Shown here: positions 22,901 to 49,603 of the stretch, one piece after another
Layout of the letters: each line of letters starts with the position of its first letter
How positions within the stretch are numbered: the stretch's first letter is position 1
Source of the DNA: Bdellovibrionales bacterium
Lineage (GTDB): Bacteria; Bdellovibrionota; Bdellovibrionia; Bdellovibrionales; JAMPXM01
Direction: 5' to 3'
Assembly: GCA_043739185.1 (NCBI GenBank)
Contig: JAYUEN010000398.1
Coordinates: 27,280-91,279, forward strand
DNA: 64,000 nucleotides
Notes under the pieces: generated by a model
What the model was told of the DNA's origin: nothing
Seen by the model: the letters and a program-made list of their open reading frames with translations, nothing else
Database searches by the model: none
Made by a program: the position numbers and the translations under genes

Positions 22901-22910
22901 AGTACCCATC

Positions 22911-24017: not shown

Positions 24018-24256
24018 TTAAAGTCATTCCTCAATAAGGGACCCGAAAACTGCCGCCATATTTTGATTAATTTTAACCTAGGCTGCAAATAAATGAAAGC
24101 TATGTGAGCTAGATTGAGGTTTAGTTTTTTACCTAAATGGGGTGCCTGATATTGGTTTCGCTGCACTAGACACAAGTCGGTTTGAATTGTGTCTCGGCTA
24201 GTGCCGAGACCTTGAAAAATTGAAGCGGAATATACTGAAATTATTCAATATTGAAA

Positions 24257-27709: not shown

Positions 27710-28468
27710 ATGCCATTGAGAGGTCAGGATTTCAAAGCTTTAGTTTTGAGTTTTATTTTTGCATTGTGCTTTTGCCAGCCATTAAACGCCCATCAAAGCC
27801 CAAGCGAAATGCTGCAAATTTCAGATCGCTCGCGAGGCGGGCTATCACAAGGAGTGGTTTGGAAGCTCAATCTCATTTCAAAAGATGCAGGCACTGAGAA
27901 TCAATTTGAATATGAAGTGAAAGTTAAAAATAGCCAGGCAATTGCTAAGTGCCTAGCGCCAGCAAGGTCAAAGAATGAGGTTTATCTGTTCTTGGATCGG
28001 AATCTATGGATGTATCGACCAGGTTTGAGAAAGGCATTGTCGCTATCGACTCGGCAAAAGCTCTCTGGCCAAGCTGCAAATGGAGATATTGCCAATACCA
28101 ATTATGCTCGAGACTATTCTGCGACTTTGCTGGGTGAAGAAGTGATTGATAAAAAGCGGACATTTAAACTGAAGCTAAAAGCAAAGTCGGATGATTTGAC
28201 CTACGATCAAATTATTTATTGGATTAGCCAAGATAAACTATTGGCCGTTAAGGCTGATTTCTTAAGTGTGGATGGTCAAGTTTTTAAAAGCGCAGTTTTT
28301 AATTATGAAAATAGTATTCAAGTTGAAGGTAAAAGTCTTCCGTTTGTGAGTCGAATGTTAATCACGGATGCAAAGAATCCTAAGCTTGTTTCTGAGCTCA
28401 ACTACTCGCAAATTAAAATCGAAAATTTGAGCGATTCTGAATTCAATGTGAATAATCTTTCGAAATGA
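27710..28468 (+). CDS. Outer-membrane lipoprotein-sorting protein (LolA-like)
   Basis: Signal peptide; LWMYRPG, RQKLSGQAANGDIA and LTYDQIIYWI motifs. Confidence 0.82.
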   Translation: MPLRGQDFKALVLSFIFALCFCQPLNAHQSPSEMLQISDRSRGGLSQGVVWKLNLISKDAGTENQFEYEVKVKNSQAIAKCLAPARSKNEVYLFLDRNLWMYRPGLRKALSLSTRQKLSGQAANGDIANTNYARDYSATLLGEEVIDKKRTFKLKLKAKSDDLTYDQIIYWISQDKLLAVKADFLSVDGQVFKSAVFNYENSIQVEGKSLPFVSRMLITDAKNPKLVSELNYSQIKIENLSDSEFNVNNLSK

Positions 28469-29766
28469 AGATTTTTTTCGCGATTTTGCTTTTGCTTGCT
28501 CCAAAATTTGCAAGCGGGTTTTTAAAGGCAAAAGGTGATGCGCCATTTTTAAAGTTTGAGACGAGCCTCGATATTATTGGCGGTATTGCCGCTCAAAATA
28601 ATCAAGTGAGCCTGACCAATCCCGATAATCAAATCTTAAATTTACCAACTCAGAGCCTTGACTCTGAATTTAAGCCGATTTTCAAATTCGAACAAAGTCA
28701 ACGTGGTCTGACGCTTTCATTAAAGCCTTATCTTCGGCTTTATGACTCGCAATTCGAATTCAAATCACAAACTCAAAATCGCAAACTTTCAGACTATGGC
28801 TTTTATGAAGCTTATTTAAGATGGGAGCTCTTGAAAGTCATCGATCTAAGTTTTGGTAAAATAAATTCTCAGTGGGGGCCATCTGAACTATTGAGTCCAA
28901 GTCAATTTATGTTTCAGGGGCTTTTGCTTCGACCAGAGCCATTTCAAAGTGTCGCTGGTCAAGAAATGATTCAACTTCAATTTACGCCAAAACAAAATTT
29001 GAGTTTTTGCGTGCAAACTGAACTCAATCCCTCAGGATTGCAGCATACGGATCAAATCAACGCGGCACCTGCAACGTCGCAAGGACGAATTTTATCTAAA
29101 GTAGATTACTCGAGTCGCTCAGGCGACTTTGATTTAGGAGTTGTCATTGGAGAGCAAGGGCAAGTACAGAAGCGAATTATTGTCGGTAGCTTTGCATTTT
29201 TTAATTACAACCCAGATGCTCAAATTTACTATGATGTAAGACACCAAAGAGGTAGTGAAAAGCTTCATATTGCTTCGATTCAAACTCTAGATCAGCCTTT
29301 TTTGACAAGCGACGAGCCCTTCACTTTGGGAGTGCTCGGTCATCGTTATAGTTTTTCAAACGGAATAGAATGGCATATCGAGTATATAGGAAGTGATTTT
29401 GGTCAAAGTATTAGTCAGCGTGAATTTGCATTTAAAACCATAAAATCAAATCCCAATACGCTACAACTTTATCAAATATTTAATGATCCGGTGAGTGCGC
29501 TCCCTGGACAAAACTATATTTACAATTCGCTCAGATGGGACAGTCCGAGCTTCTTAAGTTCACTGTTTTCTGCTTCACATATTTATTTGCGAAGCCTTCA
29601 TTCAATCGGAGATGCTTCAGCCTTTATCAACTTTGCTCTTGAAACGAGTTTATCAGATCATTGGGCACAAAGTCTTGCCATGATTAAAACCATCGGCGAC
29701 AATGAAGCCGAGCTCAATCAAAGTGTCGATTTTTATCTGAGTTACTATCTCAAACGTTCATTTTAA
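28465..29766 (+). CDS. Probable outer-membrane beta-barrel protein
   Basis: Signal peptide, EAYLRW...GK..WG motif, amphipathic strands, C-terminal YYLKRSF. Confidence 0.7.
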   Translation: MKIFFAILLLLAPKFASGFLKAKGDAPFLKFETSLDIIGGIAAQNNQVSLTNPDNQILNLPTQSLDSEFKPIFKFEQSQRGLTLSLKPYLRLYDSQFEFKSQTQNRKLSDYGFYEAYLRWELLKVIDLSFGKINSQWGPSELLSPSQFMFQGLLLRPEPFQSVAGQEMIQLQFTPKQNLSFCVQTELNPSGLQHTDQINAAPATSQGRILSKVDYSSRSGDFDLGVVIGEQGQVQKRIIVGSFAFFNYNPDAQIYYDVRHQRGSEKLHIASIQTLDQPFLTSDEPFTLGVLGHRYSFSNGIEWHIEYIGSDFGQSISQREFAFKTIKSNPNTLQLYQIFNDPVSALPGQNYIYNSLRWDSPSFLSSLFSASHIYLRSLHSIGDASAFINFALETSLSDHWAQSLAMIKTIGDNEAELNQSVDFYLSYYLKRSF

Positions 29767-29781
29767 AGTTGGAGTTAAGAA

Positions 29782-30459
29782 TTGTCTGAAATCCTGAAAA
29801 TAGAAAATGTCGAGAAGTCCTATCTGATGGGTGAAACGAAAGTGAAGGCCCTGCAGGGAGTTTGTCTGACTCTGAAACAGGGCGATTTTCATGTCATTCT
29901 AGGAAGTTCAGGCTCGGGTAAGAGTACTCTTTTGCATCTGATTGCAACACTTGATATTCCCGATTCTGGTCGCATCGAATTTATGGGTAGAGACTTAGCT
30001 GCCATGAACGAAAATCAGAAGAGCGATTTGAGAAATCGCGATTTGAGTATGATTTTTCAAAACTTCAATCTTATTGCGGCTCTCAATGTTGAACAAAATA
30101 TTGAGCTTCCTCTTATTTTGCGTAGTGAGCTTTCGGATAGTGAAAAAAAACAGCGAGTATCTCAGGCTATTCTAGATGTCGGCCTAAAGGATTTTAGCCT
30201 GCATAAGCCTGATCAGTTATCAGGAGGTCAGCGTCAGCGGGTGGCCATTGCACGGGCACTGGTGCCTCATCCAAAATTGATTTTGGCCGATGAGCCCACC
30301 GCCAATTTAGATTCAAAAACTGCGCATCAAATCATCGATTTATTGTTGGCACTCAATCAAGACAAGAAAATAACATTCTTATTCGCAAGTCATGATGAAA
30401 AGCTCATTTCACGCGTTAAAAATTTATCTAGTATCGTTGATGGTGTTATTGCCCAGTAA
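29782..30459 (+). CDS. ABC transporter ATP-binding protein (LolD/MacB-like)
   Basis: GSSGSGKST, LSGGQRQRVAIARAL and ILADEPTANLD motifs. Confidence 0.95.
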   Translation: MSEILKIENVEKSYLMGETKVKALQGVCLTLKQGDFHVILGSSGSGKSTLLHLIATLDIPDSGRIEFMGRDLAAMNENQKSDLRNRDLSMIFQNFNLIAALNVEQNIELPLILRSELSDSEKKQRVSQAILDVGLKDFSLHKPDQLSGGQRQRVAIARALVPHPKLILADEPTANLDSKTAHQIIDLLLALNQDKKITFLFASHDEKLISRVKNLSSIVDGVIAQ

Positions 30460-30468
30460 AGAGTTTCT

Positions 30469-31782
30469 CTAGTCTGAATCCCGAAGAGCATCAGAAACCT
30501 TCATATATAATGCCCGTCGCACCGGAAAGGCGCAGGCTAAAAGCGAAATAAGAATCAATGTAAAAGTTGAAAATACTATGGTTTTTGGACTAACTGTCAT
30601 CGCAAAGGCAACACTGTCTGACAGCATCCCGAGTTTATAAGGAATTTCAATAGCATTGATTATAAGCGCCAAAAAGTAAGAAAGAAAAACGCCGATCAAT
30701 ACGCCAAAAAAACTCAAGAAAAAAGATTCTGATAGGAATAAAATAAAAATATGTTGAGCGCGAAAGCCCAAGCTCAGTAAGGTTCCGATCTCGCGTGTCC
30801 GTTCAAAGACCAAGCGGTAAAAAGTGGTAACAACTGAAAGGGTTCCAATAAAGATAACCACAACAGTGATAAAATTTCGAAAGACGAAGAGAAAATCAAT
30901 ACTCTTTATATAAAAATCGCCAATGTCAAAATTTCTCCAAGACTTCAAATGTAGAGCGGGAACCTTGGCTTGAACGTACTTGAATTGCGAAATTAAAGTT
31001 GGAATATCCGATTTGTTTTTAAGGCGAATTGAGGTCATTGAAAGACTCTTGGTTTTCATTAAATTTTGGACTAAACTCAAAGGCGCCATAATGAGCCTTT
31101 GATCTAAATCACTAAAGACGCCATCAACAATTCCTACAATTTCAACTTCGGCGGCATTGATTTGGCCAGTTTCAGTCATGAGTGAAATTTGCACGCTTTT
31201 GTGTTCACAATGAAAAGTCCGATTCTTAGCTTCATAGCCATTTTTATTAATTTTGGGATGATAATTTTCGTCCTCTGAGCAGCCGATTATTTCAGCTAGG
31301 CGTCTGCCTACTACAATGATGTGATCCGTTGCGCTACTTTGTTTAAAGGCATCGTCTAATGGGGCTCCAGCTAGTGTATTCCAGCCCCAATAGGGATCGC
31401 GCATTCTGCGTCCCATCTCTGGGTCGTATCCAACTCCTGAAAATATGATTTGGAGGGAGCCTGTATTGAGTGCGCCCGAGAAATTTAAGAAAGGAACCCC
31501 AACGTCTATTTGCCCGCTATGTTCTTTTAAAAATGAGTCGATAGGCCCTTGTTCTTCTATGGTTGTATTGTCTAGCCGACTTTCTTTCCTAATAAGTAAA
31601 TCCCCATACATACTGCGATTTTCATAAGTGCGATCAAACAGAATATTGGTGTCGAAAATATAGGCTTCAAATAAATTAAGCGCAATAAAGCCACTGGCGA
31701 CAGATAAAATAGCCGCAAGAGTTTTTTTACGCGAACTCATTACATTCTTGATCGCAAGCTGAATGATTTTAAAATAAACCAT
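30469..31782 (-). CDS. ABC transporter permease (LolC/E, FtsX-like)
   Basis: One TM, a large periplasmic domain and three TMs; ERTREIGTLLSLGF. Confidence 0.9.
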   Translation of the reverse strand: MVYFKIIQLAIKNVMSSRKKTLAAILSVASGFIALNLFEAYIFDTNILFDRTYENRSMYGDLLIRKESRLDNTTIEEQGPIDSFLKEHSGQIDVGVPFLNFSGALNTGSLQIIFSGVGYDPEMGRRMRDPYWGWNTLAGAPLDDAFKQSSATDHIIVVGRRLAEIIGCSEDENYHPKINKNGYEAKNRTFHCEHKSVQISLMTETGQINAAEVEIVGIVDGVFSDLDQRLIMAPLSLVQNLMKTKSLSMTSIRLKNKSDIPTLISQFKYVQAKVPALHLKSWRNFDIGDFYIKSIDFLFVFRNFITVVVIFIGTLSVVTTFYRLVFERTREIGTLLSLGFRAQHIFILFLSESFFLSFFGVLIGVFLSYFLALIINAIEIPYKLGMLSDSVAFAMTVSPKTIVFSTFTLILISLLACAFPVRRALYMKVSDALRDSD

Positions 31783-31785
31783 AAC

Positions 31786-33177
31786 CTATGCCCTCATCAA
31801 ATCTATGATTTTTTGAAGCATCATTTTTCGAGAAATGATCCAGGTCGTAAGTAAAACTATGATGAGCATCGAAATTAAAACAGAATAAGTATAAATAAAA
31901 GTAGGTTGTAAAACGAATTGCAGGTCATTGGCAAAGCCCGGTATTCGAAAGCGAAAATTCAAATGATTATTTAGGGACTTTAATAAGAAAGCCAAAAAAC
32001 CACCGAAACAAAAACTGACAAATGAAATAATTAAGTACTCAAAAGAAAATAAAATTTGAATTTGTTGGGGGCGAAAACCAATAGAGCGTAGGCTTGCAAT
32101 CTCGGGCTTTCGCTCTAGAAAAGAAATTTGAAGCGAGTTTGCTATTGATAAGATAACCACCCCGCAAACGAGAACCGCGAAAAATGAAATCATCACATAA
32201 ACAAAATTCATAGCGCCTCGGTAAATCTCACTGACTTGTTCTTCGCGATAGCTATGAATCTCAACATTTTGAATATGATTTTGCTGAAGCTCGCGGTTTA
32301 GAGCGGCCTGTAATTTTTCGAGTTCTGAGACCTTCTCTAAAATGACTGCAATTCTTGAAATATGATCAGTCCGTAAGAGGTTCTGCGCGGTTTGAAAAGG
32401 AAGTAGGACTGAGGTTTCATCTGTAAAACTGAACCCGGTAGACATAAGGCCACTGATCGCGGCATCGGTTACGCCCAATCCTCCGTCACTGGCTTGAGCA
32501 AAAATTTGAACAAAGGGATCTTCTGCAATTTTTTTTGCAGAGTCTGGGCTTTTGCAGTCTAAGGCTTGAAGATTTGCGCTTGGTACAATTTCTGTCAGAA
32601 TATTTTGCTTTTTCAAAAGTGAAAAGAGAACCGGACTCATATTTATCGGAACCAAATCAGAATTTCGCGTCCAGAATCCGGCACCACGATCAAACTTTGT
32701 AAGTTCTGGTATTTCTCTTAAAACCTGCGGATGTGAGTAAATCCAGTTGAGATCGGCTGGGTCTACGCCGGTAAACAAGATGGGCAGACTTAGGCACGAA
32801 TTAGTGATCATGGCCTGGCCACTTAAAACCGAAATTACTTTGTCATTTGAATTTAAATTCCGACTCAGAATGTTTTTAATTTTGTCGGCTTCTTCGGCGT
32901 TCAAACTATATTGATTTGGGTTTTGATAATAAAATTTAATCGCATTTTTCTTCCAAAAAGAGAGGTGCCCAACTTGTCTTAGAAAGATACTCTGGGTGGC
33001 TAAATAATCCTCCATGCGAAGCATATAGCCGCCGAGAAGAACCAAACCACAAAAGCCAAAGGATAGGCCTAGGCAAGTAAAAATATGGCGTCTTCTATAG
33101 GTCCAGACATTTCGTGAGGCGAGCTTCCAGATTTTGGGAAGTTTGGAGATTGAATTGCTTTTTTGAATTTCGCTCAA
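31786..33177 (-). CDS. ABC transporter permease (LolC/E, FtsX-like)
   Basis: LASRNVW..RRR; ERKPEIASLRSIGF; same topology as the neighbouring permease. Confidence 0.9.
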   Translation of the reverse strand: MSEIQKSNSISKLPKIWKLASRNVWTYRRRHIFTCLGLSFGFCGLVLLGGYMLRMEDYLATQSIFLRQVGHLSFWKKNAIKFYYQNPNQYSLNAEEADKIKNILSRNLNSNDKVISVLSGQAMITNSCLSLPILFTGVDPADLNWIYSHPQVLREIPELTKFDRGAGFWTRNSDLVPINMSPVLFSLLKKQNILTEIVPSANLQALDCKSPDSAKKIAEDPFVQIFAQASDGGLGVTDAAISGLMSTGFSFTDETSVLLPFQTAQNLLRTDHISRIAVILEKVSELEKLQAALNRELQQNHIQNVEIHSYREEQVSEIYRGAMNFVYVMISFFAVLVCGVVILSIANSLQISFLERKPEIASLRSIGFRPQQIQILFSFEYLIISFVSFCFGGFLAFLLKSLNNHLNFRFRIPGFANDLQFVLQPTFIYTYSVLISMLIIVLLTTWIISRKMMLQKIIDLMRA

Positions 33178-33195
33178 GCAAACTCCGTCAATTAA

Positions 33196-33609
33196 CTATA
33201 TTAAAAGTTGAAAGTTCCCGTAACCCATAATTAAAAGCGAGATGGTCCCGCAACTTACGGGAACAACTTCTAAATACTTAAGCGGCAAATAAATTGAGCC
33301 GAGAAATAAAAAACTCGGAACTCCCCACATACAAACTAACCAACAATAACTACCAATCATCTTAAAAGAGTCTGAGATTGGCATGGCATCGATGTATTGG
33401 CCATAGACAATCGAAATGAGTGGCAGAGCAAAGAGAGCAATATGCGCGAGTCGATTCATCCTTCTGGGTAAATCTGTATAATTGTGATGACCGGGGGGCG
33501 TTTTGAATGGACCCGCAAATGACCAAAGGCCTAGGGTTGATCCGGTCAATATTCCCATGATCATAGTAATCCATCCGAGATGAATATTTAAAAGTCCGTA
33601 ATGGGTCAT
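33196..33609 (-). CDS. Small 4-TM membrane protein
   Basis: Four hydrophobic helices; RRMNRLAH motif; first gene of the permease operon. Confidence 0.75.
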   Translation of the reverse strand: MTHYGLLNIHLGWITMIMGILTGSTLGLWSFAGPFKTPPGHHNYTDLPRRMNRLAHIALFALPLISIVYGQYIDAMPISDSFKMIGSYCWLVCMWGVPSFLFLGSIYLPLKYLEVVPVSCGTISLLIMGYGNFQLLI

Positions 33610-33662
33610 AGGGCCTCTTTCTTAAAAAGAACTTTTCAACTCATAAAGAATTTTGCTGGTAA

Positions 33663-33920
33663 AAGAGCCTCATTTCAAGCTCAAATAGGTTCTTTCTTCT
33701 TTATGATGGTAAAACCTTGAACACTTCTGCGTCAGGCATTCCGAATTCAGTCAACTGCAACTGATACGGACTCTGACACACTGAAGGCTGTTCACCGAAA
33801 CTGGTAAGCGGTTGACGGCCGCTGCTGCCGTTAAAACTGATTTAAAATCTAGATATGAAGCGAGCTCACCCAAGAGAAGACAGAGCCCAAATTCTGACAA
33901 AAATGGCTCAATCGCCCATA
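33663..33920 (+). repeat. Degenerate dispersed repeat, copy C
   Basis: Colinear with 25485-25760; shares gacacactgaa and cgctgctgccgt with 44431-44487. Confidence 0.75.
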
Positions 33921-34116
33921 AGTTCTGCGGCCTCAAACTTGATTTGATTTGAAGTTTGCTAAACAAATATCAAATTTACATCCGCGCCAAAAAGTCAAAA
34001 GGACGGCGAAGACTGTGGCCCCGTTGGTTGAAAGCTTGAGTCCTTCGACTTTTAAAATCGTCAAAAAGTTCGACAGAGGTTTTTTTTCCTGATGTATAAG
34101 TAAAAAAATGCGGCCA

Positions 34117-34132
34117 TGGCGTTGGAATTGCA
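34117..34132 (+). promoter_or_regulatory. Putative sigma54 promoter of the diiron enzyme-PKS operon
   Basis: TGGCGT-TGGAA-TTGCA (GG-N10-GC), followed by a GAGGAGG RBS and the ATG at 34179. Confidence 0.65.
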
Positions 34133-34178
34133 AATTGTGATTTGGTAGCGCCAGTCCGAAGCCCTGAGGAGGATTCAA

Positions 34179-35066
34179 ATGTCGACCGCAGTTTCAATTA
34201 AGAGTTTGTTAAAAGTTCTCGATTCAAAGAGTCTCAATCATCCAAGAGCAATCGGACGACAAGCAGTGCAAGCCAGTGTTGGCGAATCTGATTGGAATCG
34301 AAATCTTCTTTTCTCAAACGAGCTTCAAAGAAAAATTGACAAACATAAACTTTGTCGGCACCCGCTGATTGGTTTGTTGAGTACTGAAAAGCTCAATGTA
34401 AACGCCACAAAAATTATTCATTTTGAGTTTTCATACGCATTTGCCGAAATATTTACCGACTCTCTTATTCAAGCGATGACAACCTCGGCTTCATTAGAGC
34501 CGCGGCTTGGAGCTATGGGCAAGGTTTCGGCGCGATTTTTACTCCAGCTCAATTTGCTCGATGAATTGGGTTTTAAACCCATGGTAAATGGGTCTGAAGA
34601 CTCTGAATTTTGTGGCAATCCATTTTTAGCCCACTATGTACAATTCAATGAAACAATCGAGGAATTGGGCGGCCTTCATAAAGATATCTTAAATTATAAG
34701 GCGTCGGCAGCAGCCGCGACGGCGCGTAGAACATTTACCGATCATTACAGCGACCACTTGAATCTTACAACCGTGCTCGCAGTTGCAGAGACTGTATTTA
34801 CCCTCTTCGCAGGTCCCTGGGCCAAGAGCGTGAGTTTATCAACTGATATTGATGTGAGTCGAGGTTATCACAAAATTCACGTTGAAGATGACCATGGAGA
34901 ATTTGTTGATGACGATCACTCAGAAGATTCTTGGTATATTTTTCGTCAAGCCGTTGAAGAAAAGGATTTCAAATTGGTAGAAGAAAATATTTTGCAATGG
35001 TTAGACACCTGGTATGACTTTGGCGATGAGGTCATGCACATTGCTCGTCAGCTCTCAAAGAAGTAA
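34179..35066 (+). CDS. Heme-oxygenase-like diiron oxidase (HDO; CADD/PqqC-like fold)
   Basis: HPL near the N-terminus; NLLDELG...AHY, AVAET and YHKIHVEDDH...DDDH fit the E..H / E / H..D..H ligand pattern. Confidence 0.72.
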   Translation: MSTAVSIKSLLKVLDSKSLNHPRAIGRQAVQASVGESDWNRNLLFSNELQRKIDKHKLCRHPLIGLLSTEKLNVNATKIIHFEFSYAFAEIFTDSLIQAMTTSASLEPRLGAMGKVSARFLLQLNLLDELGFKPMVNGSEDSEFCGNPFLAHYVQFNETIEELGGLHKDILNYKASAAAATARRTFTDHYSDHLNLTTVLAVAETVFTLFAGPWAKSVSLSTDIDVSRGYHKIHVEDDHGEFVDDDHSEDSWYIFRQAVEEKDFKLVEENILQWLDTWYDFGDEVMHIARQLSKK

Positions 35067-35084
35067 ACCATTAAGGAAATAGTC

Positions 35085-38000: not shown

Positions 38001-41000
38001 AAGTCACAGATAAATATTGCAAGTTTTCTCCCAAAAACTATTTTGAGCGGCACGGCTCATTGGCACTCATTTGAAGACGAAATGAAACACAAAACGAGGC
38101 AGCACACGGACGCGATCAAATCCAAGGACGCCTTAACTCCGGCTTTCAATCGCAAGGAAAATCAAATGGAATTTTTAAATCCGAATGAAGCTTTACAAGA
38201 ACTAGAAGTGCAGAAAGAACTCGTGCAAATTGTTGCCTCTGTCATGAGAGTTTCGATTCAGGATATATCACTTGATGAAAGCCTAGTCGATATCGGAGCC
38301 GACTCTTTGGTACTCATGAATGCCGTTCAGACTATAAAGGAAACCTATGAAGTATCGATTCCGATTTCGGAAGTCTTCAAAGACCTCAATAATCTAAGGA
38401 AAATTGCGAACTTTATTGTCAACGAATCCCCGGTAATTCAGAGCCGGAATCCGGTTGAAGAATCACTTTCTTCAAGCCTGCCGCAATTCGAAAGTTCAAA
38501 TCTAACGCCTGAAGTGGTCAAGCTCTTTCAAAATCAAATTGCTATTATGAATCGACAACTTGAGGTTTTGGGACTCAATGCAAGCGCTCAAAAGCTCAAT
38601 GTACCAAATCAACAAATATTGCCACCAGAGAAATTAGAAATTGCAAATCTAGGCAAAGAAAAGCGCGGAGTACTTGGCAATTTCAAAAATTTTGCAAACC
38701 TCGAGGCCGAGACCGAATCGGATCGAATGAAGAATAGATTTCTCAATAGAGTCATTGCGGAATTCAACGCCAAGACACCTAAGACAAAAACTCACGTTCA
38801 GAAATATCGCAAACAACTCGCTGATAATCGCGTGAGTGCTGGCTTCAGGCCCAATACAAAGGAAATGATATATCCAATTCATTGTCTCAAGGCTAAAGGA
38901 AGTAAATTTATAGATTTAGACGGGAATGAGTTTACCGATTTTAGTATGGGCTTTGGCGTGAATCTCTTTGGCCATTCACCTGATTTTATAGAGGCAGCCC
39001 TTTTAGAACAAATGAAGAACGGAATGTGTCTGGGGCCGCAGTCATTTTTGGCCGGAGATGTTGCTTCTCAATTGAGTGAATTGACCGGACTTGAACGCGT
39101 GGCATTTGTCAATTCTGGTACCGAAGCAGTTATGACCGCTGTTCGCCTTGCACGCGCCGGTACGAAGCGCTCAAAGATTGTGATTTTTGATGGCTCCTAT
39201 CATGGCCATTTTGATGGTATCCTTGCTCGTCCAAGTCGGAGTTTAAAATCCCATCCGGTGGCGGCCGGAATTTCGGAAAGTCTTTTAGAGGATGTCATTG
39301 TGCTCGAATATGGTAGCGCTCGCTCACTCGAAATAATTGAAGAGATGGGTGAAAATTTGGCAGGAGTCTTGGTTGAACCTGTTCAAAGTCGTTTTCCGGA
39401 ATTTCAACCCCAGGCCTTTTTACAAAAGTTAAGAGAAATTACCAAGCGCAATGGGACAGCATTTATTTGGGATGAAGTGATCACAGGTTTTCGAATTCAT
39501 CCCGGTGGTGCACAAGCTCATTTTGAAATTCAAGCCGATATCGCCACTTACGGAAAAATTCTAGGTGGAGGAATGCCAATTGGTGCGGTGGCTGGCTCTG
39601 CAAAATATTTGGATTTTATTGATGGTGGTCATTGGCAATTTGGAGATCAATCTTATCCGAGTCATGAAATGACTTTTTTTGCGGGAACCTTTTCTAAACA
39701 TCCTTTAGCGATGGCAGCGGCAAATGCAGTACTTTTGAAGCTCAAGCAAGAAGGTAAGGAATTGATCGAGAGCCTAAATGAAAAGACCACTCAACTTTGT
39801 AGAGAATTAAATTCGTATTTTAAAGAACAATATTTGGCTATTGAGCTAAATAATTATGGTTCATTGTTTAGGTTCAAAGCGGCCTTAAATTTAGATTTAT
39901 TTTTTACGCTTTTGAACAGTCGTGGCTTTTATGTTTGGGAGGGCCGAAATCTATTTTTATCAACGGCACATTCGGCAGAAGACATTCAAAATTTCAAGCA
40001 GGCCGTCGTTGACATTACTGGCGAGCTCCTTTCAGAAGGCATCTTAGTCCCGCAAAAGCCAGCTTTGGTTAAGCCCTTAAGCCTCAGTTTGCCTCAAGCT
40101 AGGTTTGCAAATTTAAGTGCGAATCTAGAATTTGGAAATTCAGCAAGTTTGATTTGTGTTAGCGCCAAGGTCAAAGGCTTCTTGGATATTGAGAAGCTTA
40201 AACTTGCTCTGCAGATACTTCAAGATTCGCATGACCTTTTTAATTTAAGAGTCAATATTAACGATAAGCTCCAAGAGTTTTCATCGCTTGCATCTCCTGT
40301 TGATTTTGAATTTTTGAACTACCGATCTGAAAAATCTCCCTGGAAAATATTAGACCAAGAACTAAATATGCTGGCCCAGACAAATTTTGATTTAACCAAA
40401 TCCCCAGGCATTTTGGTGAGGCTATTTGAGGTGGCGGTTGATACTCACGTATTGGCGGTTATTACTCACCATCTGGTATTTGATGGCTGGACCATGACCC
40501 TCTATTTCGAAGAGCTTGCTCGCATTTACAATAGTCTGCTTTTAGGAACTACGCCTGCAAAGAATCAACAATTGAGTTACGAACAATTCCTGAATCAATC
40601 CTCAATGAATAGAGTCGATGAAAAACTACTGAGTGCCAAAAGTTATTGGGAAAACGAATTCGCAGAGATTTTAGGTAACCAAGCAGAAAATTCGGTGGCC
40701 ATTGAAAAAAGCCTAAAGGGACAACGCATCGTTTTTGATCTAGAATTGAAACTTTATAAAGCCCTCAAGCTATGGGCAAGAGAACACAAAATGACCGCGT
40801 TCATGTTTTTATTCGGCTGTTTTGCAAAAGCACTTATGACTCGTCTTCATAAAAATGAAATTGTAATTGGCATTCCGGTCGCGAACCGCGATTATCCGGG
40901 CTCAGAAAAAATGTTTGGGAATTGTGTGAATTTACTTCCGGTAAAAATTCAAAATAGCGAGCCCAATGTTGAAGCTTATTTTGCCTATGTAAAATCAAAA

Positions 41001-41366
41001 ATTTTAAACGCCTATCAAAATATGAATTATCCGTATGAAAAATTAATTGCAAGTGCAGGGCCCCTGTTTGATACTTACTTTAATTTGGAGCCCACCTCTG
41101 ATCTGCCAGAATTTGATCAGGCGAGCCTCATTATTCATCCATTTCCAATTGCGGCAAGTGAATATAAACTCATGTTGAATATCACTGATTTCGAACACTA
41201 CTATCATTGTGAATTCGATTTTCAAAATGCAAAATTAAGCGATGACGAAATTCTAGAAATGATTGATGATTTAAAGGCGCAAATCAAAGCGGTCGTCACT
41301 GCGAAATCTGTGGCGGGGCCCAAGCAGAATACGCTGAGCGCAAGTGAAGAAGATTTGACGCCTTAA
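35085..41366 (+). CDS. Hybrid type I PKS: ACP-KS-AT-ACP-aminotransferase-condensation domain
   Basis: ACP1 GIESL; KS DTACSSS, EAHGT, NIGHLE; AT GQGAQ, GHSLG, GFHS; ACP2 GADSL; class III PLP aminotransferase DEVITGFR, YGKILGGG; C domain HHLVFDG. Confidence 0.95.
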   Translation: MSDLRDSKTSSVDELIELITSEIATVTGIPASKISIDQGFMEMGIESLQAVAIIENLSLKLHENLNVELLFDHPNIQKLAIHLELESNLKERKIIAERSISPGADELLKSEKEIFENTDISIVGMSCRFPKANGLLEFYDLLLNGRSGIDSMTKDRLKLHAEHRQKEMGFVEAIENFASDAFSISSHEANLMDPQQRMLLEECNRALEDAGYTPKDLQGSHTGVFIGVSNSDYAFEISKSSRVDIFTSLGNAHSIVANRISYFYDLKGPSLAVDTACSSSLVALHMAVQSLARNEIEMAIVGGVNSLLSSEITNAFWEAGMLSPDSRCFTFSKEANGYVRGEGVGVIVLRRSKDMVGNSFRSYAKIKATAINQDGKSSGLTAPNGSAQESALREALLKANLNPEEISYHEAHGTATALGDPIELLALERIHKLRLKDQPLLIGSVKTNIGHLESAAGIASVIKVALGLYYKKIFKNLNFSEINPQIKNRIASLEPVLLRQDWSSRHGERLYASLSSFGFGGTNACAILAEADMPFPQTKTDIVDSLDLKTENKGHIVFAWSANSQAAVRNGMKNLLNQVKYKSWDEAAIYAQASIAKRRFFKDQILVNVSSKKQLQDLSALFQDSSIDLSNIENIREFKKQKLGSKRIAFLFTGQGAQYSQMYYTLYEDDILFKSLVDEALQEAQIYYPKNLYQVWTDARLVSDLDQTDYSQILLFALALSFAKYLKIKFNVEPEYSFGHSLGEITAAAFAGAFDLKTSIQMVACRARLMWQTQAGAMTAVFEAKTQIESILIKYAIELDISAINGPRFIVLSGPENEIIKLETGCDKERIKYVRLKPKQGFHSRLMDPILQEYQSALNDLSFEALKSPIVSSLTGDLLPEGFHYKPEYWLEQMRRPTQFDKALATMQDLKVTHFIEIGPEPQLIGMAKLTGKNKPANWVHFFDKQLLRKSFVEASFFLFENDLTADADFFKKSQINIASFLPKTILSGTAHWHSFEDEMKHKTRQHTDAIKSKDALTPAFNRKENQMEFLNPNEALQELEVQKELVQIVASVMRVSIQDISLDESLVDIGADSLVLMNAVQTIKETYEVSIPISEVFKDLNNLRKIANFIVNESPVIQSRNPVEESLSSSLPQFESSNLTPEVVKLFQNQIAIMNRQLEVLGLNASAQKLNVPNQQILPPEKLEIANLGKEKRGVLGNFKNFANLEAETESDRMKNRFLNRVIAEFNAKTPKTKTHVQKYRKQLADNRVSAGFRPNTKEMIYPIHCLKAKGSKFIDLDGNEFTDFSMGFGVNLFGHSPDFIEAALLEQMKNGMCLGPQSFLAGDVASQLSELTGLERVAFVNSGTEAVMTAVRLARAGTKRSKIVIFDGSYHGHFDGILARPSRSLKSHPVAAGISESLLEDVIVLEYGSARSLEIIEEMGENLAGVLVEPVQSRFPEFQPQAFLQKLREITKRNGTAFIWDEVITGFRIHPGGAQAHFEIQADIATYGKILGGGMPIGAVAGSAKYLDFIDGGHWQFGDQSYPSHEMTFFAGTFSKHPLAMAAANAVLLKLKQEGKELIESLNEKTTQLCRELNSYFKEQYLAIELNNYGSLFRFKAALNLDLFFTLLNSRGFYVWEGRNLFLSTAHSAEDIQNFKQAVVDITGELLSEGILVPQKPALVKPLSLSLPQARFANLSANLEFGNSASLICVSAKVKGFLDIEKLKLALQILQDSHDLFNLRVNINDKLQEFSSLASPVDFEFLNYRSEKSPWKILDQELNMLAQTNFDLTKSPGILVRLFEVAVDTHVLAVITHHLVFDGWTMTLYFEELARIYNSLLLGTTPAKNQQLSYEQFLNQSSMNRVDEKLLSAKSYWENEFAEILGNQAENSVAIEKSLKGQRIVFDLELKLYKALKLWAREHKMTAFMFLFGCFAKALMTRLHKNEIVIGIPVANRDYPGSEKMFGNCVNLLPVKIQNSEPNVEAYFAYVKSKILNAYQNMNYPYEKLIASAGPLFDTYFNLEPTSDLPEFDQASLIIHPFPIAASEYKLMLNITDFEHYYHCEFDFQNAKLSDDEILEMIDDLKAQIKAVVTAKSVAGPKQNTLSASEEDLTP

Positions 41367-41528
41367 GGGCCCGTCCAAAAATAACTACTCTTTCTTTGCT
41401 TGGTCTTTTTCGAAAAGTCTTCGTTGGTCGTCGTCCGATTAAGCCCCTGGCTAGTCGTTCCTCCTCCCGCCTCGACTTTTCGAAAAATCCACGGCGCAAA
41501 GAAAGGGCATTTATTTTTAGACGGGCCC
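41367..41528. mobile_element. Palindromic MITE-like element, 162 bp
   Basis: Imperfect TIRs gggcccgtccaaaaataa / ttatttttagacgggccc, nested IRs (ctttctttgc, tttttcgaaaagtc), TAA on both flanks. Confidence 0.8.
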
Positions 41529-41536
41529 TAACGCAA

Positions 41537-42580
41537 CTATTTGCGACAATCTAAAATATGATTGTCGAAGACGCTGCCTATCAAAATATGATTTGGGTCG
41601 ATTGCAAGGGCGACACTTGCGGCCGATATTTCTTCGCCACTATTTTCATAGATGACTTTTTGAATAGGCTTTTCTCCCTGCCAATTTTCGATTGAAATAA
41701 TTTTGGAGGGCGCAATCTTTCGACGCTGCTCTGACATTTTTCTCAATCTTAAAAGATTTGGATGAACTGCGACCAAAGCATGATTGTCACGGACGGTGAT
41801 ATTGTCGGGTGCGCCCTCTAAAGATAAAGTGTTTTTTCTTCGAATTTCAGAATTGAATCTTTCATATATCAGTACTTTTTTTGAAAGCATGGCGGCAGCT
41901 ATCAAATATCTTTGATCGGATGAAACGGCAATTCCATTAGCGAAAAAAATGTGCTCGTCGACCTTTGATGCGATTTTTTCATTTTGAAAAAAGCTGATAT
42001 AGCCACTTGCTATATAGGTATAGGGTTCAATCATCTTTCGTAACGGGTCCGGGCTGCCAAAGTCGCTGGTGATATAAAAGCTTTCGGTTGAGACCAAGGC
42101 AAGATCGTTTGCGGACTGTAAGAGAGGGTGTTCAATGCTTTTAATATATTTGAGTTCATTGGTACTTTGCCAATTGAAAACCTCAAGCGTGGTGTGATGT
42201 TTATCGCGATGATTGATTGCATAAACTAAGATTTGATCCTCAGTTTTAAAGAGATCAATGCCATGCGGATGAAAGTTAAAACTTAATTTGAGCTTTTTGA
42301 TCAAAGGAAAAGCTTGGCGTGTTTTCAGATCATATTGAAAAAGGTCACCTTGAGCCAAATCGCCTCTAAGGTCAGAACTAATCAGCACATGGTCTTCCCC
42401 TGGGATTTGAACCATGTCTTCAGGGCCTTCTATGATTGAGCTTGATTTGCAATCGCCAAATTTAATGTCGCTAATTTCCCTAAAGTATCCGGCATCTGCG
42501 ACGAGGTAGAGAATGTATCCGCTGAGAAACATTAATAAAAGTACGAGAGCCTTAAGCATTTTTACCCTGCTTAAGCTCAA
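41537..42580 (-). CDS. Paraoxonase/arylesterase-like six-bladed beta-propeller (SMP-30/strictosidine synthase superfamily)
   Basis: N-terminal anchor; GPEDM, FHPHGID, ANDL, FANGIAVS and PDNI motifs; N- and C-terminal Cys. Confidence 0.82.
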   Translation of the reverse strand: MSLSRVKMLKALVLLLMFLSGYILYLVADAGYFREISDIKFGDCKSSSIIEGPEDMVQIPGEDHVLISSDLRGDLAQGDLFQYDLKTRQAFPLIKKLKLSFNFHPHGIDLFKTEDQILVYAINHRDKHHTTLEVFNWQSTNELKYIKSIEHPLLQSANDLALVSTESFYITSDFGSPDPLRKMIEPYTYIASGYISFFQNEKIASKVDEHIFFANGIAVSSDQRYLIAAAMLSKKVLIYERFNSEIRRKNTLSLEGAPDNITVRDNHALVAVHPNLLRLRKMSEQRRKIAPSKIISIENWQGEKPIQKVIYENSGEEISAASVALAIDPNHILIGSVFDNHILDCRK

Positions 42581-44264
42581 AGGATTTTACGACCGCTGCT
42601 CGTTTAACCTTTTGGCTACTGGTGAGTTCGAGACTCGCTTCTTGAAATTTGAATTCATTTGGCCGTTTGAAAGCTGAAAGACTTTCGCAGAGTGATTTTA
42701 GATCTGCAGTAATTTGGTTTTTCAATTGTGGATTTTTGTAAGCCTCTTGAAAGCGCTCTTGAAGATTGATGATTGCGATGATTTTATCGCCTGCAGCTTG
42801 GGCCGTAATGCTAAAAACACAGACATTTTTAACATAAGGGGAGGTCACTAAAATTTCTTCGACTTCTTCGGGTTGGAGTTTTTTGCCGCTTGATAAAACA
42901 ATCATACTCTTTATTCGGCCCACGACGTAAAGGTATCCATCTGAATCGATGACACCCAAGTCTCCAGTTTTAAACCACCCATCTGCGGTTTTGAGTTCAT
43001 TTGTTAACGCTGAATTTTTAAAATAGGATTCGAAGACATGAGGTCCCTTTGTCCAAATTTCGCCACTTTCTTCATTCTGTTCAGCACTTGAATCTTTCAC
43101 TATTTTCAATTCGACACCAGGTAGGGCTTTTCCGGTTGAGCCATTTCGCGAGGCATTTGGAGTATTGAGACTGATGACCGGCCCCGTTTCAGTTAAGCCA
43201 TAACCATTGTATACAGGCCAGCCAAATGCTTGAAAGAAGTCCGCGGTTTCTTTACTTAAATTAGCTCCACCAGAAATGAAGAACTCAATTGTTTCGCCTA
43301 AGCCAGCCCGAACCTTTTTGAAAAAAAGTATTGCTATTAACTCTGATTTGAGACGTTTGTTGAGAAACAATACGGCCGAAAATAATAATTTTTGAAATTT
43401 CGGCAAAGCTTCGACTTTGGCTAATATTCCATTTCGGATTAACGTAAGGATCAGTGGCACAACAATGAGGCGGCTTACTCTTCTTTCTTTAATAAGTAGA
43501 CTAATACTTTGCGGTGATAAATTTTGCGTGAGACAAACCTCTTGGCCCATCCAAAGAATAGGAAACATTGAGCCCGACAAGCCATAGATGTGATTGAGTG
43601 GCAATATTGAAAGAGCTGCACTGCGACCCGCTTTAATAGGGAAGGCTTGTTTGATCGCATGAATTTGAAAAAATATTGATGAGAAGGAGATATGAACTGC
43701 TTTTTGGTTTCCTGAAGTTCCAGAAGTATAGACAATCAATCGAGATGATTTGTGCGCGTCTGGGTCTTCATTTTGAGAAGCTGAAATCGATTGAACTAAG
43801 ACACGTGGATAATTAGAAATTTGAGAGAATCTAATAATAGATGTCTGCAAACGCTTCACCGGCTTCAGACTATTGGCAAATTGAAATAGGTCGTCTGAAA
43901 CAAATAAATGTGTGGCCTCAAAGTGTTCAAGTAGTTCGGAGGTTTCTAATTGACTGAGTTTAATGTCCAAGATGCAAACGCAGGCACCTTTTAAAAGGCT
44001 AGCAAAGAAATTCTTGAGTAAATCAAGAGAAGTGGGACCTAGAAAGGCGACCCTTGAACTCGCATTAATTCCGGGAATACTTTGCCGACGAAAAAAATCT
44101 TGAATTGAAGTTAAAAAGTCATTTCCGGTAATACTATTTATACTTGGGGCTTGGGTTGAGTCGGTAGGTGAGTTCTCTAAAATACTGAGTATATTTTCTG
44201 AGCCTGCTTGCCGGCAGACATTCTCAAGAAATTCTTTGATGGATTCGGGTGCATGTTCGAGCAT
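42552..44264 (-). CDS. Long-chain fatty-acid--CoA/ACP ligase (AMP-binding enzyme)
   Basis: YTSGTSGNQK, GYGLTETGP, GWFKTGDLG and GRIKSMIVLSSGK motifs. Confidence 0.92.
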   Translation of the reverse strand: MLEHAPESIKEFLENVCRQAGSENILSILENSPTDSTQAPSINSITGNDFLTSIQDFFRRQSIPGINASSRVAFLGPTSLDLLKNFFASLLKGACVCILDIKLSQLETSELLEHFEATHLFVSDDLFQFANSLKPVKRLQTSIIRFSQISNYPRVLVQSISASQNEDPDAHKSSRLIVYTSGTSGNQKAVHISFSSIFFQIHAIKQAFPIKAGRSAALSILPLNHIYGLSGSMFPILWMGQEVCLTQNLSPQSISLLIKERRVSRLIVVPLILTLIRNGILAKVEALPKFQKLLFSAVLFLNKRLKSELIAILFFKKVRAGLGETIEFFISGGANLSKETADFFQAFGWPVYNGYGLTETGPVISLNTPNASRNGSTGKALPGVELKIVKDSSAEQNEESGEIWTKGPHVFESYFKNSALTNELKTADGWFKTGDLGVIDSDGYLYVVGRIKSMIVLSSGKKLQPEEVEEILVTSPYVKNVCVFSITAQAAGDKIIAIINLQERFQEAYKNPQLKNQITADLKSLCESLSAFKRPNEFKFQEASLELTSSQKVKRAAVVKSFELKQGKNA

Positions 44265-44430
44265 AAATAATTGTATATCAATTGTATTTTGAAGAGCTAC
44301 TAAGATAGCTTTGGACTTTTTTTACACAACCAACACCTAGTCGAGATTGAATTCGATAGTACTGAACTCCAAATCATTGATTGGGGTTTTTTCTGCTGGC
44401 CGATGGTTTGGGTGTATGCCTTTATTTGCT

Positions 44431-44560
44431 GACACACTGAACCCCGAGACCGAAACAAGTAAGACACTTGATTGTCGCTGCTGCCGTCACTGATTTGAAG
44501 CCAAGAGTTGAAGCAGGACCCTTTAAAAAAGTGACAGAGCCAGTACAGCGACTAACTTTT
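44431..44560 (+). repeat. Degenerate dispersed repeat, copy D
   Basis: gacacactgaa, ccgagac, cgctgctgccgt, actgattt, caagagttgaa and gacagagcc blocks shared with copies B/C. Confidence 0.7.
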
Positions 44561-44615
44561 GGTCAGTGGTGCCAATCCAAAAGATTGGTATTGGTTGTGC
44601 ATATATATTCCTCGA

Positions 44616-46367: not shown

Positions 46368-46526
46368 GCCGCTCTGATTGCGAATTCGACAGACTCGAGT
46401 CGGGCTCCAGGCTATTGGCCTAGTTCAAACGCCAAATGTAAAAGTTTAAAAACGGCGACTCTAGCTCTTTAAATTGGCTGCCGATAAATCTCAAATGGGC
46501 TGCGAATCGAGAGTGAGGATGTTCAA

Positions 46527-47903: not shown

Positions 47904-48031
47904 AGTGATGCCAGGGTCAGTCTATTTTCGCGTTAAAAAAGCTTGAATTAAAACTTCATATTCTTCTTGGCACTTGCTCGCAGTGTCGGTATGCTTCAGA
48001 CCAGATTTAAACATTTTCTGTAGGGAGCTAT

Positions 48032-48436
48032 ATGAAAAATTTATTATTATTTGTAGTCATTTCTTTTCTTTTTGTTTTGCCAAAAGCTTATGCTGGTTTA
48101 GGTTCAACTTCAGGATCTACTTCAGGCAGTTGTTCAAATTCAATTTCACAACTAGGATATTTTTATGCATATACATATCAATACGCCTATATATACAATG
48201 GGATTTTGGGATCTGAAAGTCACAGTTTTAGCTTCTCAGGTTTTCTCGCGGATATGAAGGACGCTAAGATTGTTGGAGCTAACGAAAAGTATGTTGTTTA
48301 TCGCTCACAACATGGGCGAGCACTTGACCTAGCGGTTCCCTTTCAGAGCGGCGCCGGTTTATTTGTGAAGTATGTTGAGAGCACTGATTTTCCTGGTGAA
48401 GGCAAATCTGCCTGGACAAAACTGTGTAGCTATTGA
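48032..48436 (+). CDS. Small secreted hypothetical protein
   Basis: Signal peptide ending AYA, GS-rich linker, GGGAG RBS. Confidence 0.7.
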   Translation: MKNLLLFVVISFLFVLPKAYAGLGSTSGSTSGSCSNSISQLGYFYAYTYQYAYIYNGILGSESHSFSFSGFLADMKDAKIVGANEKYVVYRSQHGRALDLAVPFQSGAGLFVKYVESTDFPGEGKSAWTKLCSY

Positions 48437-49597: not shown

Positions 49598-49603
49598 GCC
49601 CTA

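Follow-up and report, generated by a model that had tools for sequence, protein, structure and literature searches.

The 64,000-nt window, meaning the whole stretch of DNA analysed, contains ten contiguous open reading frames between positions 27710 and 44264, all intact and free of frame breaks (Table 1). Their strand order (+,+,+,-,-,-,+,+,-,-) divides them into four transcription units and rules out a single operon. Nearest named homologues of the cluster proteins are found in Pseudobdellovibrionaceae and Bdellovibrio. A preliminary description had listed, among the ten genes, a single ACP-KS-AT-ACP-AMT-C megasynthase, a heme-oxygenase-like diiron enzyme, a paraoxonase-like propeller and a 4-TM protein, and reading frames, Pfam domains and folds bear out each of these. 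The Pfam scan left three frames (the barrel, the 4-TM protein and the diiron oxidase) without a match, and these were assigned by other means. Promoter and terminator scans of the cluster gave counts at chance level (28 versus 35.0 and 20 versus 17.5). The inverted-arm element beside the megasynthase gene has more copies on four other contigs and is thus not specific to the cluster.

Table 1. Features of the cluster, with positions in the window, strand and basis of assignment.
Feature	Position	Strand	Basis
LolA-like periplasmic lipid shuttle, accessory export	27710..28468	+	PF17131, E=4e-32
Probable outer-membrane beta-barrel, accessory export	28465..29766	+	No Pfam match; hydrophobic N-terminus
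LolD/MacB-type ABC ATPase	29782..30459	+	PF00005
FtsX/LolCE-like permease	30469..31782	-	PF02687
FtsX/LolCE-like permease	31786..33177	-	PF02687, weak MacB_PCD
4-TM protein, core gene	33196..33609	-	Four-helix model, fold search, conservation
Heme-oxygenase-like diiron oxidase (HDO), Iso4 orthologue by sequence	34179..35066	+	Homologue profiles, fold, tree
Megasynthase ACP-KS-AT-ACP-AMT-C, 2093 aa	35085..41366	+	Pfam: two PP-binding, KS, AT, Aminotran_3, Condensation
164-nt element with 34-nt inverted arms	41366..41529		Between converging PKS and lactonase genes
Paraoxonase-1-like calcium lactonase, N-terminal anchor	41537..42580	-	Pfam Arylesterase; PON1 structures, E=2e-29
Stand-alone long-chain acyl-CoA-ligase-type adenylating enzyme	42552..44264	-	Pfam AMP-binding

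Loading modules of the MycA/ItuA type follow an ACP-KS-(AT)-ACP-AMT-C logic and yield a 3-aminoacyl thioester. The megasynthase has its KS at amino acids 118-479, AT at 650-934, second ACP at 1045-1111, AMT at 1264-1582 and C at 1667-2088, and the protein stops there, with nothing beyond the C domain. Catalytic motifs are intact throughout: C277/H412/H451 in the KS, S741 with an FH motif in the AT, S47 and S1074 in the ACPs, K1491 in the AMT and the HHxxxDG motif (H1795-H1796...D1800-G1801) in the C domain. This conserved domain make-up agrees with the suggested single malonyl extension and transamination, with no A/PCP or TE to follow. It differs from MycA/ItuA-type systems in lacking downstream A/PCP modules, in its dedicated HDO and in a C domain that falls apart from NRPS-continuing post-AMT C domains; no A-PCP module occurs among the scanned frames, and a hand-over to an NRPS of the MycA/iturin type was not found. 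The active-site motifs, including FH, mark the KS-AT as malonyl-specific like Iso5 of the myxofacycline pathway, for which the AT FH motif is reported in the supplement, as is the likeness of the ACP-AMT to the MycA/ItuA type (PMC9298251).

PF14518 is matched by 70 of 88 aligned homologues of the HDO. The AlphaFold model (pLDDT 94.5) has CADD, BesC and PolF as its top fold matches, and its neighbours include the C-C-cleaving enzymes BesC and UndA and the N-oxygenases RohS and HrmI; homologue profiles and fold search together give the protein the HO-like helical fold. An HDO ligand motif, E-H-E-H-(D/E)-H, is given in PMC13725569. The window HDO has this set by sequence, with E129, H152, E204, H231/H234, D245 and H247 as candidate ligands, assigned from alignment rather than model geometry. 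Among PKS-linked HDOs, E129, H152, E204, H234 and H247 are kept in 30/30 and D245 in 27/30, and E83 and H231, also invariant in all 30, occur in 1/15 and 0/15 of the others. With 40% identity to HDOs of iso clusters (E=5e-73) and a 100/100 branch shared with them in a tree of 31 rows, 30 of them PKS-linked, the enzyme is by sequence an orthologue of Iso4. Within the phylum, it occurs in only 10 of 401 genomes. Acinetobacter homologues were rejected as members of the system, KS being absent from 11 Acinetobacter-type loci; one plasmid-borne copy stands alone beside a TetR gene.

The myxofacycline cluster, iso1-9, is known from Myxococcus xanthus Mx x48, Stigmatella and Corallococcus (PMC9298251). 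We located it among our loci through the published iso4 knockout primers, which land in the HDO homologue of Myxococcus vastator (L029) at 10020 and 10582 with 0 and 1 mismatches; the 563 bp that they span, plus two 10-nt tails, equal the published 583-bp iso4 amplicon, and an iso3 primer matches the gene upstream. Loci L031 and L032 are C. sicarius CA040B and Vitiosangium GDMCC 1.1324, both named as iso carriers in the supplement (PMC9298251). Identity to the myxofacycline proteins is 40% for the HDO, 42%/30% for the malonyl-type KS-AT, 53-54% for the AMT and 23% for the C domain. Shared features are an ACP-AMT-C without an A domain, fatty-acid activation and possible TE-free release. The window cluster differs in that KS-AT and ACP-AMT-C are fused in one protein behind a loading ACP, that a stand-alone CoA-type ligase takes the place of the FAAL-ACAD-ACP protein Iso2, and that a 4-TM heme-fold protein, a PON1-like lactonase and an export set are added to the iso-type core. 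None of the ten genes encodes the acyl-CoA dehydrogenase (ACAD) of Iso2, and no Iso3 desaturase or Iso7/8/9 was found in the cluster or its flanking frames; with these missing, myxofacycline itself cannot be the product. By sequence, the cluster is a stripped-down line of the myxofacycline type, with an Iso4-like oxidase, KS-AT and ACP-AMT-C. The preliminary description could not match it to a characterised pathway; the iso cluster is a characterised relative (PMC9298251).

The published Iso6 C domain forms a distinct clade with an HHxxxDG motif, and truncated products of that system are released without a TE module (PMC9298251). In our tree, 27 HDO-linked terminal C domains, including Iso6 orthologues, separate from 32 NRPS-continuing post-AMT domains with a support of 99, and a mixture-model tree of 20 versus 24 rows leaves the split unchanged; these are quick trees, in which the branches of the HDO-linked group are long and the window and Iso6 domains share only the 23% identity given above. 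All 27 HDO-linked proteins end 272-310 aa past the C motif. On these alignments, the terminal C domain groups with the Iso6 type and not with amide-forming NRPS domains. In a FastTree phylogeny, by contrast with the C domains, the AMT domains of HDO-linked clusters are not united in a single group (3 changes).

A KS accompanies close HDO homologues at 31 of 32 loci and weaker ones at none of 15, a co-occurrence far above chance. Twenty-two related loci are of the kind described here: 14 of Bdellovibrionota type and 8 enterobacterial, from Serratia, Photorhabdus and Enterobacter; in S. plymuthica, an AraC-type regulator gene adjoins the cluster. The 4-TM gene occurs in 21 of the 22, which makes it a core gene, and the lactonase in 16; the expected conservation in other genomes is therefore found. 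In two loci with a complete PKS, L013 and L015, no lactonase lies within the fetched flank. Iso2-type dehydrogenase and Iso3 desaturase activities are absent from all 22. Neither a second ligase nor an export set occurs in any of the eight enterobacterial loci, a FAAL-type ligase is fused into the Serratia proteins, unlike the stand-alone ligase here, and a full ferredoxin-reductase lies beside the lactonase in five of the eight. A type II thioesterase is encoded in 11 of the 14 Bdellovibrionota-type loci and is fused to the HDO in homologue P0028. Three cyanobacterial loci also carry the HDO-PKS core. The Serratia plymuthica literature covered names no product for the cluster, and a search mostly without subscription literature returned no publication that combines HDO, PKS and aminotransferase, or isoxazole and heme oxygenase-like enzymes.

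The 4-TM protein is modelled as four helices, with R50, R53 and H56 invariant in its family (H56 in 80/80) and Y44, Y112 and K111 conserved. Styrene oxide isomerase (SOI; PDB 8PNU; PMC11374702) ranks first in a Foldseek search with the model (E 0.037, probability 1.0) and second in a VIA structure search, tied with heme-copper-oxidase units. The two share a four-helix fold (TM 0.73; Z 11.4, r.m.s.d. 2.8 Å over 130 residues; helical bundles may attain a Z of this size by chance) and a conserved helix-2 histidine, H56 here and H58 in SOI. The family was placed by fold searches only: identity is 12-13%, no sequence profile links the proteins, and profile searches of the family against solved structures returned nothing significant. 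A homotrimer model scores 0.96 against 0.00 for the best control, with contacts agreeing 100% and pLDDT at least 93; this mark is reached by 20 of 30 true pairs and 1 of 23 single chains, and the prediction may be memorised, since the SOI trimer structure is solved, and includes heme that was not scored. On modelling, a heme-binding homotrimer is predicted.

The 4-TM family comprises 447 representatives at 50% identity. Unlike the SOI gene, its genes adjoin HDO-PKS or B12 radical-SAM genes; distant relatives adjoin or are fused to B12 radical-SAM enzymes, the local Pfam assigns this domain to no family in 46 distant matches, and single homologues are fused to an AurF N-oxygenase and to an ACP. 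The gene was not found in the four iso-type genomes searched, on which ground we rejected it as an obligatory HDO reductant, nor in the three cyanobacterial loci or in the Nostoc and Moorena genomes searched. It lies outside 34179-44264, the fragment first proposed for expression.

The lactonase aligns with PON1 over residues 33-340, active-site motifs included, and differs in being bacterial and in sitting in a biosynthetic cluster. Ten positions (E54, D55, H106, H124, N158, D159, N215, D259, N260 and H273) are invariant in 16/16 aligned copies and align with PON1, where they make up the calcium site and the catalytic residues. The stand-alone ligase likely activates the starter fatty acid, judging from its sequence; it falls in its own 12-row group apart from FAALs and is not of the FAAL type that is fused into MycA-like proteins. 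The proposed LolA-like, barrel and LolD/LolCE-like export set survives as Lol-like families with a probable barrel, whose nearest named Atlas clusters, by language-model features only, are DUF1302 (0.96) and Porin_O_P (0.95). With LolCDE/LolA and MacB-type exporters it shares an ABC ATPase, two FtsX permeases and a LolA-like shuttle, and differs by the barrel. True LolCDE identity is ruled out by scores far below the equivalog cut-offs (LolD 229 versus 308 bits, LolCE 62 versus 362 bits), and three more LolA-like copies lie elsewhere in the genome. The FtsX set occurs in 4 of 14 Bdellovibrionota-type and none of the eight enterobacterial loci, and MMPL (3/14) or ABC-2/HlyD sets replace it in relatives; we therefore rejected it as core and regard it as exchangeable.

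Having its three core enzymes in common with the isoxazole (myxofacycline) pathway of myxobacteria, the cluster probably produces a fatty lipid that bears a rare nitrogen-oxygen ring, and exports it. The specific product that we favour, at a probability of about 0.45, is a 3-alkylisoxazol-5-one or isoxazolidin-5-one. A fatty acid activated by the ligase would reach the first ACP, KS-AT would add one malonyl unit and the AMT would turn the 3-oxo group into a 3-amine, both as expected from their families. The HDO would then likely oxidise the amine to a hydroxylamine or oxime, as proposed for Iso4 from knockouts rather than in vitro; N-oxidation by Iso4 and cyclisation by Iso6 are both proposals from single-crossover mutants that may be polar (PMC9298251). 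With no dehydrogenase or desaturase to make the C5 acceptor used in myxofacycline, we propose an attack of the N-OH oxygen on the carbonyl of the thioester, with help from the terminal C domain, to close a five-membered ring; such cyclising release would explain the missing thioesterase. The lactonase could open the ring for self-protection or maturation, the 4-TM protein could be an accessory redox or isomerising partner, and the ABC, LolA-like and barrel proteins would move the lipid outward. Given the iso relative, N-oxidation and ring formation become the expected outcome and not a side possibility: of the beta-amino lipid first proposed, a small exported nitrogen-containing lipid remains likely, and the beta-amino form is probably an intermediate. 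The PON1-type residues kept in the lactonase and an export set of exchangeable lipid transporters fit the ring model; the 23% identity of the C domain, the ungrouped AMT, the lactonase missing near two PKS and distant 4-TM relatives that accompany radical-SAM enzymes, not N-O chemistry, speak against it. Given the type II thioesterases and the P0028 fusion, the chain may instead be released by hydrolysis, the free acid then being the substrate of the HDO.

In the first of the alternatives, an unlikely one, either the SOI-like heme protein or the HDO would rearrange the N-oxidised intermediate to a dysidazirine-type 3-alkyl-2H-azirine-2-carboxylic acid. Dysidazirine acid, C18H31NO2 with nitrogen bridging C2 and C3, came from a cyanobacterial collection (PMC8911782); its skeleton is that expected from a C16 starter, malonyl and AMT, and cyanobacterial loci share the core, yet those loci, the nearest to the known azirine source, all lack the 4-TM gene. 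In the flask, Fe(II) turns 5-chloroisoxazoles, made from isoxazol-5-ones, into azirine-2-carbonyls (PMC9822487), a chemistry that requires an activated isoxazole. A heme Lewis-acid isomerase is the top Foldseek match of the 4-TM protein, at fold level and without mapped counterparts of the catalytic SOI residues Y103, N64 and N99, and the top folds of the oxidase include PolF, an HDO that forms small rings. A search mostly without subscription literature found no azirine biosynthetic pathway. Were this reading true, the cassette would be the missing route to long-chain 2H-azirine-2-carboxylic acids, with the cultured Serratia plymuthica, Photorhabdus kayaii and Bdellovibrio sp. HCB337 as unrecognised producers; an SOI-like heme trimer would contract an isoxazol-5-one or oxime to a three-membered ring while the lactonase guards the producer, and in the 4-TM family HDOs and B12 radical-SAM lipid enzymes alike would have a new class of heme partner in the membrane.

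Less probable still, the KS may act twice or take a 3-oxoacyl starter, giving a (5-alkylisoxazol-3-yl)acetic acid of the kind represented by myxofacyclines 1a-7a, which are truncated products. An iterative Iso5 is one of two published starter models and iso9 mutants build up such compounds, but iso2, with its dehydrogenase, and iso3 are reported as essential (PMC9298251), both activities are absent here, and the lactonase would be left without an ester substrate. Next in rank, improbable, and close to the reading first proposed, the C domain would hand the beta-aminoacyl chain over to an amine, an alcohol or another acyl-CoA; the outcome would be an amide, ester or hydroxamate membrane lipid, with the HDO as a tailoring enzyme only. 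The canonical HHxxxDG motif and a stand-alone CoA-type ligase that could provide a second acyl donor favour it, and export of a Lol-like kind suits an outer-membrane lipid; the Iso6-type grouping of the C domain, enterobacterial loci without second ligase or export set, and the rarity of the HDO in the phylum, a better fit to a specialised metabolite than to a structural lipid, speak against it. Least probable is an oxime released as the acid and then decarboxylated or cleaved to a methyl ketoxime, nitrile, nitro or alkene lipid, the heme protein serving as oxime dehydratase or HDO electron carrier: the C-C-cleaving and N-oxygenating fold neighbours, the AurF and ACP fusions and an electron-transfer protein encoded in ~40% of HDO clusters (PMC13725569) favour it, whereas iso-type clusters work without a 4-TM gene and the enterobacterial ferredoxin-reductases indicate that the 4-TM protein is not an obligatory reductant.

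If an N-O ring lipid is the product, the lactonase-like protein and the predicted heme membrane protein would finish or detoxify it. N-O heterocycles are uncommon in nature, and the ring-forming step in myxofacyclines, whose building block myxadazoles reportedly share, is only proposed. The cluster packs the same core into one protein plus one oxidase, and Serratia strains that carry it are easy to grow, so that N-O bond formation and TE-free release by an unusual C domain can be tested directly. It also places an unnamed SOI-like membrane family, found alongside HDO, AurF and B12 radical-SAM enzymes, in a biosynthetic context for the first time, and offers a concrete specialised-metabolite lead for Bdellovibrionota.

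The cluster at 27710–44264 of the window is real and conserved across several phyla, and it likely works like the core of the myxofacycline pathway, though it is not a strict member of that family. The preliminary description had found no match to a characterised pathway; however, the layout of what we call iso-type loci matches the myxofacycline (iso) cluster in the available parts of PMC9298251. There, Iso2 is a FAAL–ACAD–ACP protein (fatty-acyl-AMP ligase type; acyl-CoA dehydrogenase), Iso3 a desaturase, Iso4 a TenA/PqqC-like protein called ‘cryptic’ that is proposed to convert an amine to an oxime, Iso5 a KS–AT, Iso6 an ACP–AMT–C without an A domain and Iso9 the last PKS–TE module, and the pathway yields isoxazole, pyrimidinol and pyrrolinone fatty acids. 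Both published iso4 primers match the Myxococcus vastator homologue of the heme-oxygenase-like diiron oxidase (HDO), with the published spacing, and loci L031 and L032 belong to strains that the supplement lists as iso carriers. The hosts of iso-type clusters L033 (Trinickia), L034/L035 (Ramlibacter), L050 (Burkholderia multivorans) and L029 (M. vastator) are not among the carriers named in the accessible supplement; L033 and L034 continue from ACP to KS–AT without a stand-alone A domain.

All ten ORFs previously described were found, each intact, and they form four units of differing strand rather than one operon. Pfam bears out the claimed megasynthase order ACP–KS–AT–ACP–AMT–C and finds nothing beyond C, in line with the earlier claim that no A, PCP or TE follows. 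Catalytic motifs are all present in the cluster enzymes (motif inspection and alignments). The window HDO itself has no Pfam match; PF14518 is matched by 70 of 88 aligned homologues (120 listed), and the HDO model (pLDDT 94.5) best matches the folds of CADD, BesC and PolF. The cluster contains no PPTase or type II thioesterase, and weak homologues of both occur elsewhere in the genome. Most flanking ORFs lack any Pfam family.

Features in and around the cluster (window coordinates)
Unit	Feature	Position	Strand
1	LolA-like, barrel, ATPase		+
2	4-TM protein	33196–33609	-
2	Two FtsX permeases		-
3	HDO	34179–35066	+
3	Megasynthase (2093 aa)	35085–41366	+
4	Lactonase (paraoxonase-1-like)	41537–42580	-
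4	Ligase	42552–44264	-
	Dispersed repeat, two copies	33773–33860; about 44430–44515	
	164-nt element	41366–41529	
	DUF4423 helix-turn-helix genes, converging pair	50774–52599	
	Flanking ORFs	21434–25327; 44559–50791	

The biosynthetic genes have one copy of a dispersed repeat on either side; the source genome holds 112 copies on 67 contigs, none within ORFs of at least 150 aa. Since its variation appears codon-periodic by eye, the repeat could represent a short-peptide family or a decayed coding one. The 164-nt element has 34-nt inverted arms and resembles a MITE or REP, with two other contigs carrying near-full copies (78–95% identity) and a further two having shorter matches. The genome also carries several more type I PKS genes and three additional LolA-like genes, two adjoining FtsX permeases (contigs C492, C258, C108, C44, C49, C175, C351 and C481; C24, C395 and C429).

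Species genomes scanned with the HDO alignment yielded 48 loci; the 47 tabulated are 46 of these (leaving out L012, which nearly duplicates L013, and L036, laid out as L003) plus L003. Conserved co-occurrence is borne out: a KS lies at 31 of 32 close-HDO loci, whereas none of 15 weaker-HDO loci has one, and these counts are not independent events, many loci being close kin. At the sole exception the contig stops just past the HDO. The closest named homologues among the matches listed are Pseudobdellovibrionaceae and Bdellovibrio proteins (71–74%). The HDO is patchily distributed: with the source genome counted each time, it turned up in 2 of 41 near relatives and in 10 of 401 genomes from the phylum. 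Acinetobacter (L041–L049, L051, L052, L143) has distant, stand-alone, partly plasmid-borne homologues with Tyr replacing H231 and no PKS nearby.

Close-HDO loci fall into three flavours. The iso-type loci (n = 7; myxobacteria, Trinickia, Ramlibacter, Burkholderia) have a desaturase (7/7) and ACAD (6/7) but neither 4-TM nor lactonase; the cyanobacterial loci (n = 3) have a Rieske oxygenase (3/3), again with neither gene, and ABC-2/HlyD export genes at two. The window’s flavour (14 Bdellovibrionota-type and 8 enterobacterial loci) has the 4-TM gene at 21 of 22 loci and the lactonase at 16, four of the six misses being contigs cut off ahead of the PKS end or just beyond it. FAAL is fused to the megasynthase in all 8 enterobacterial loci; Bdellovibrionota-type loci have a stand-alone CoA-type ligase (12/14) and type II thioesterase (11/14). 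Export genes vary, with an FtsX set at 4 and MMPL at 3 of the 14 Bdellovibrionota-type loci and none in the 8 enterobacterial ones. The megasynthases of L003/L036 and L010, and proteins P0379 and P0382, lack AT (ACP–KS–ACP–AMT–C), which points to malonyl being loaded in trans. In five of eight enterobacterial loci (L016:7546–9444; L019, L020, L024, L026), a divergent ketosynthase-like gene (632 aa) lies directly upstream of 4-TM; in S. plymuthica it adjoins an AraC/DJ-1 regulator, and in Photorhabdus a LuxR-type gene takes its place.

Window and iso-type HDOs, 40% identical, share a 100/100 branch of 31 rows (L029, L035 and L050 are not in the tree), of which one, the long-branched L037, lacks a PKS. 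In two quick trees (outgroups: the first 32 of 68 NRPS-continuing proteins; then 16 of these plus 8 second C domains), terminal C domains of HDO-linked clusters stand apart from the NRPS-continuing ones (support 99), echoing the remark in the accessible text of PMC9298251 that the Iso6 C domain is a distinct clade. Against kinship, the window C domain is only 23% identical to that of Iso6, and AMT domains of HDO-linked clusters form no single group. Missing from the window cluster are the features of Iso2, Iso3 and Iso7–9, which is why it is no strict member of the family.

As we read the NMR assignment in the available parts of PMC9298251, myxofacycline A carries N where the Iso5/6 intermediate has its beta carbon, with ring O at the delta carbon; that delta acceptor would have to stem from starter or iteration. 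The window’s flavour has neither ACAD nor desaturase, which would make the thioester carbonyl the nearest electrophile for an N-hydroxylated beta-amine. Five-membered closure onto the thioester would yield a 3-alkylisoxazol(idin)-5-one and free the chain, accounting for the missing TE, the A-less terminal C domain and the co-inherited lactonase with its PON1-type site, fully conserved in the alignment. We infer these isoxazol(idin)-5-one-forming steps, and the roles of Iso4 and Iso6 are themselves proposals in PMC9298251. A search that barely reached subscription journals found no published description of the window’s flavour or its product.

The product could instead be read as a dysidazirine-type azirine: the skeleton matches dysidazirine acid (PMC8911782, in part), iron catalyses isoxazole-to-azirine conversion (PMC9822487, in part) and the predicted isomerase fold of 4-TM would fit, but absence of the 4-TM gene from cyanobacterial clusters weakens this reading. 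Cyanobacterial loci L030 (Moorena), L023 (Nostoc minutum) and L025 are candidate clusters for cyanobacterial N-lipids, azirines included; L030 additionally has three desaturases and a cyclopropane-synthase-like methyltransferase. A truncated myxofacycline made by iteration, a plain beta-aminoacyl amide or ester, and decarboxylated or nitrile products are further alternatives, each of low and about equal probability.

The 4-TM protein belongs to no named family. Foldseek ranks styrene oxide isomerase (SOI) first for its model (pLDDT 93.7), with probability 1.0, TM 0.73 and E just 0.037, and the top five of a wide fold search are SOI and heme-copper-oxidase units at Z 10.1–12.1, values that chance can give helical bundles. 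SOI binds heme b via H58 at its trimer interface (PMC11374702, in part); R50, R53 and H56 are conserved without exception across 80 distant 4-TM homologues. A three-copy model scored 0.96 against 0.00 for the best control, with contacts agreeing 100% between runs and pLDDT at least 93; 20 of 30 true pairs reach this score mark, as does 1 of 23 single chains, and the predictor's memory of the solved SOI trimer may underlie the pass. The 4-TM gene was not found in five iso-type or Nostoc genomes, nor in the Moorena genome (positive controls in part of the searches); Iso4-type HDOs thus work without it. Five of eight enterobacterial loci also have a ferredoxin-reductase, similar in domain content to the MboB redox partner (PMC13725569, in part).

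A reciprocal scan with the 4-TM alignment took the best 80 of 127 metagenome matches; the top 20 of these have an HDO at 15, contigs under 3 kb at 3 and a ligase plus radical-SAM gene instead at 2. A B12 radical-SAM gene lies within 1.5 kb of 44 of 59 distant homologues (metagenome loci L073–L132), several fused, and of 15 of 17 with at least 1.5 kb of sequence either side; one homologue carries an AurF fusion and another an ACP fusion. Tandem paralogues and roughly 400-aa repeat forms also occur (examples across the family: P0333, P0268, P0249). We read 4-TM, from its predicted fold, as a putative accessory heme partner of lipid-modifying metalloenzymes, acting as isomerase or electron carrier, and its distant relatives as an unnamed heme-fold family that merits a study of its own.
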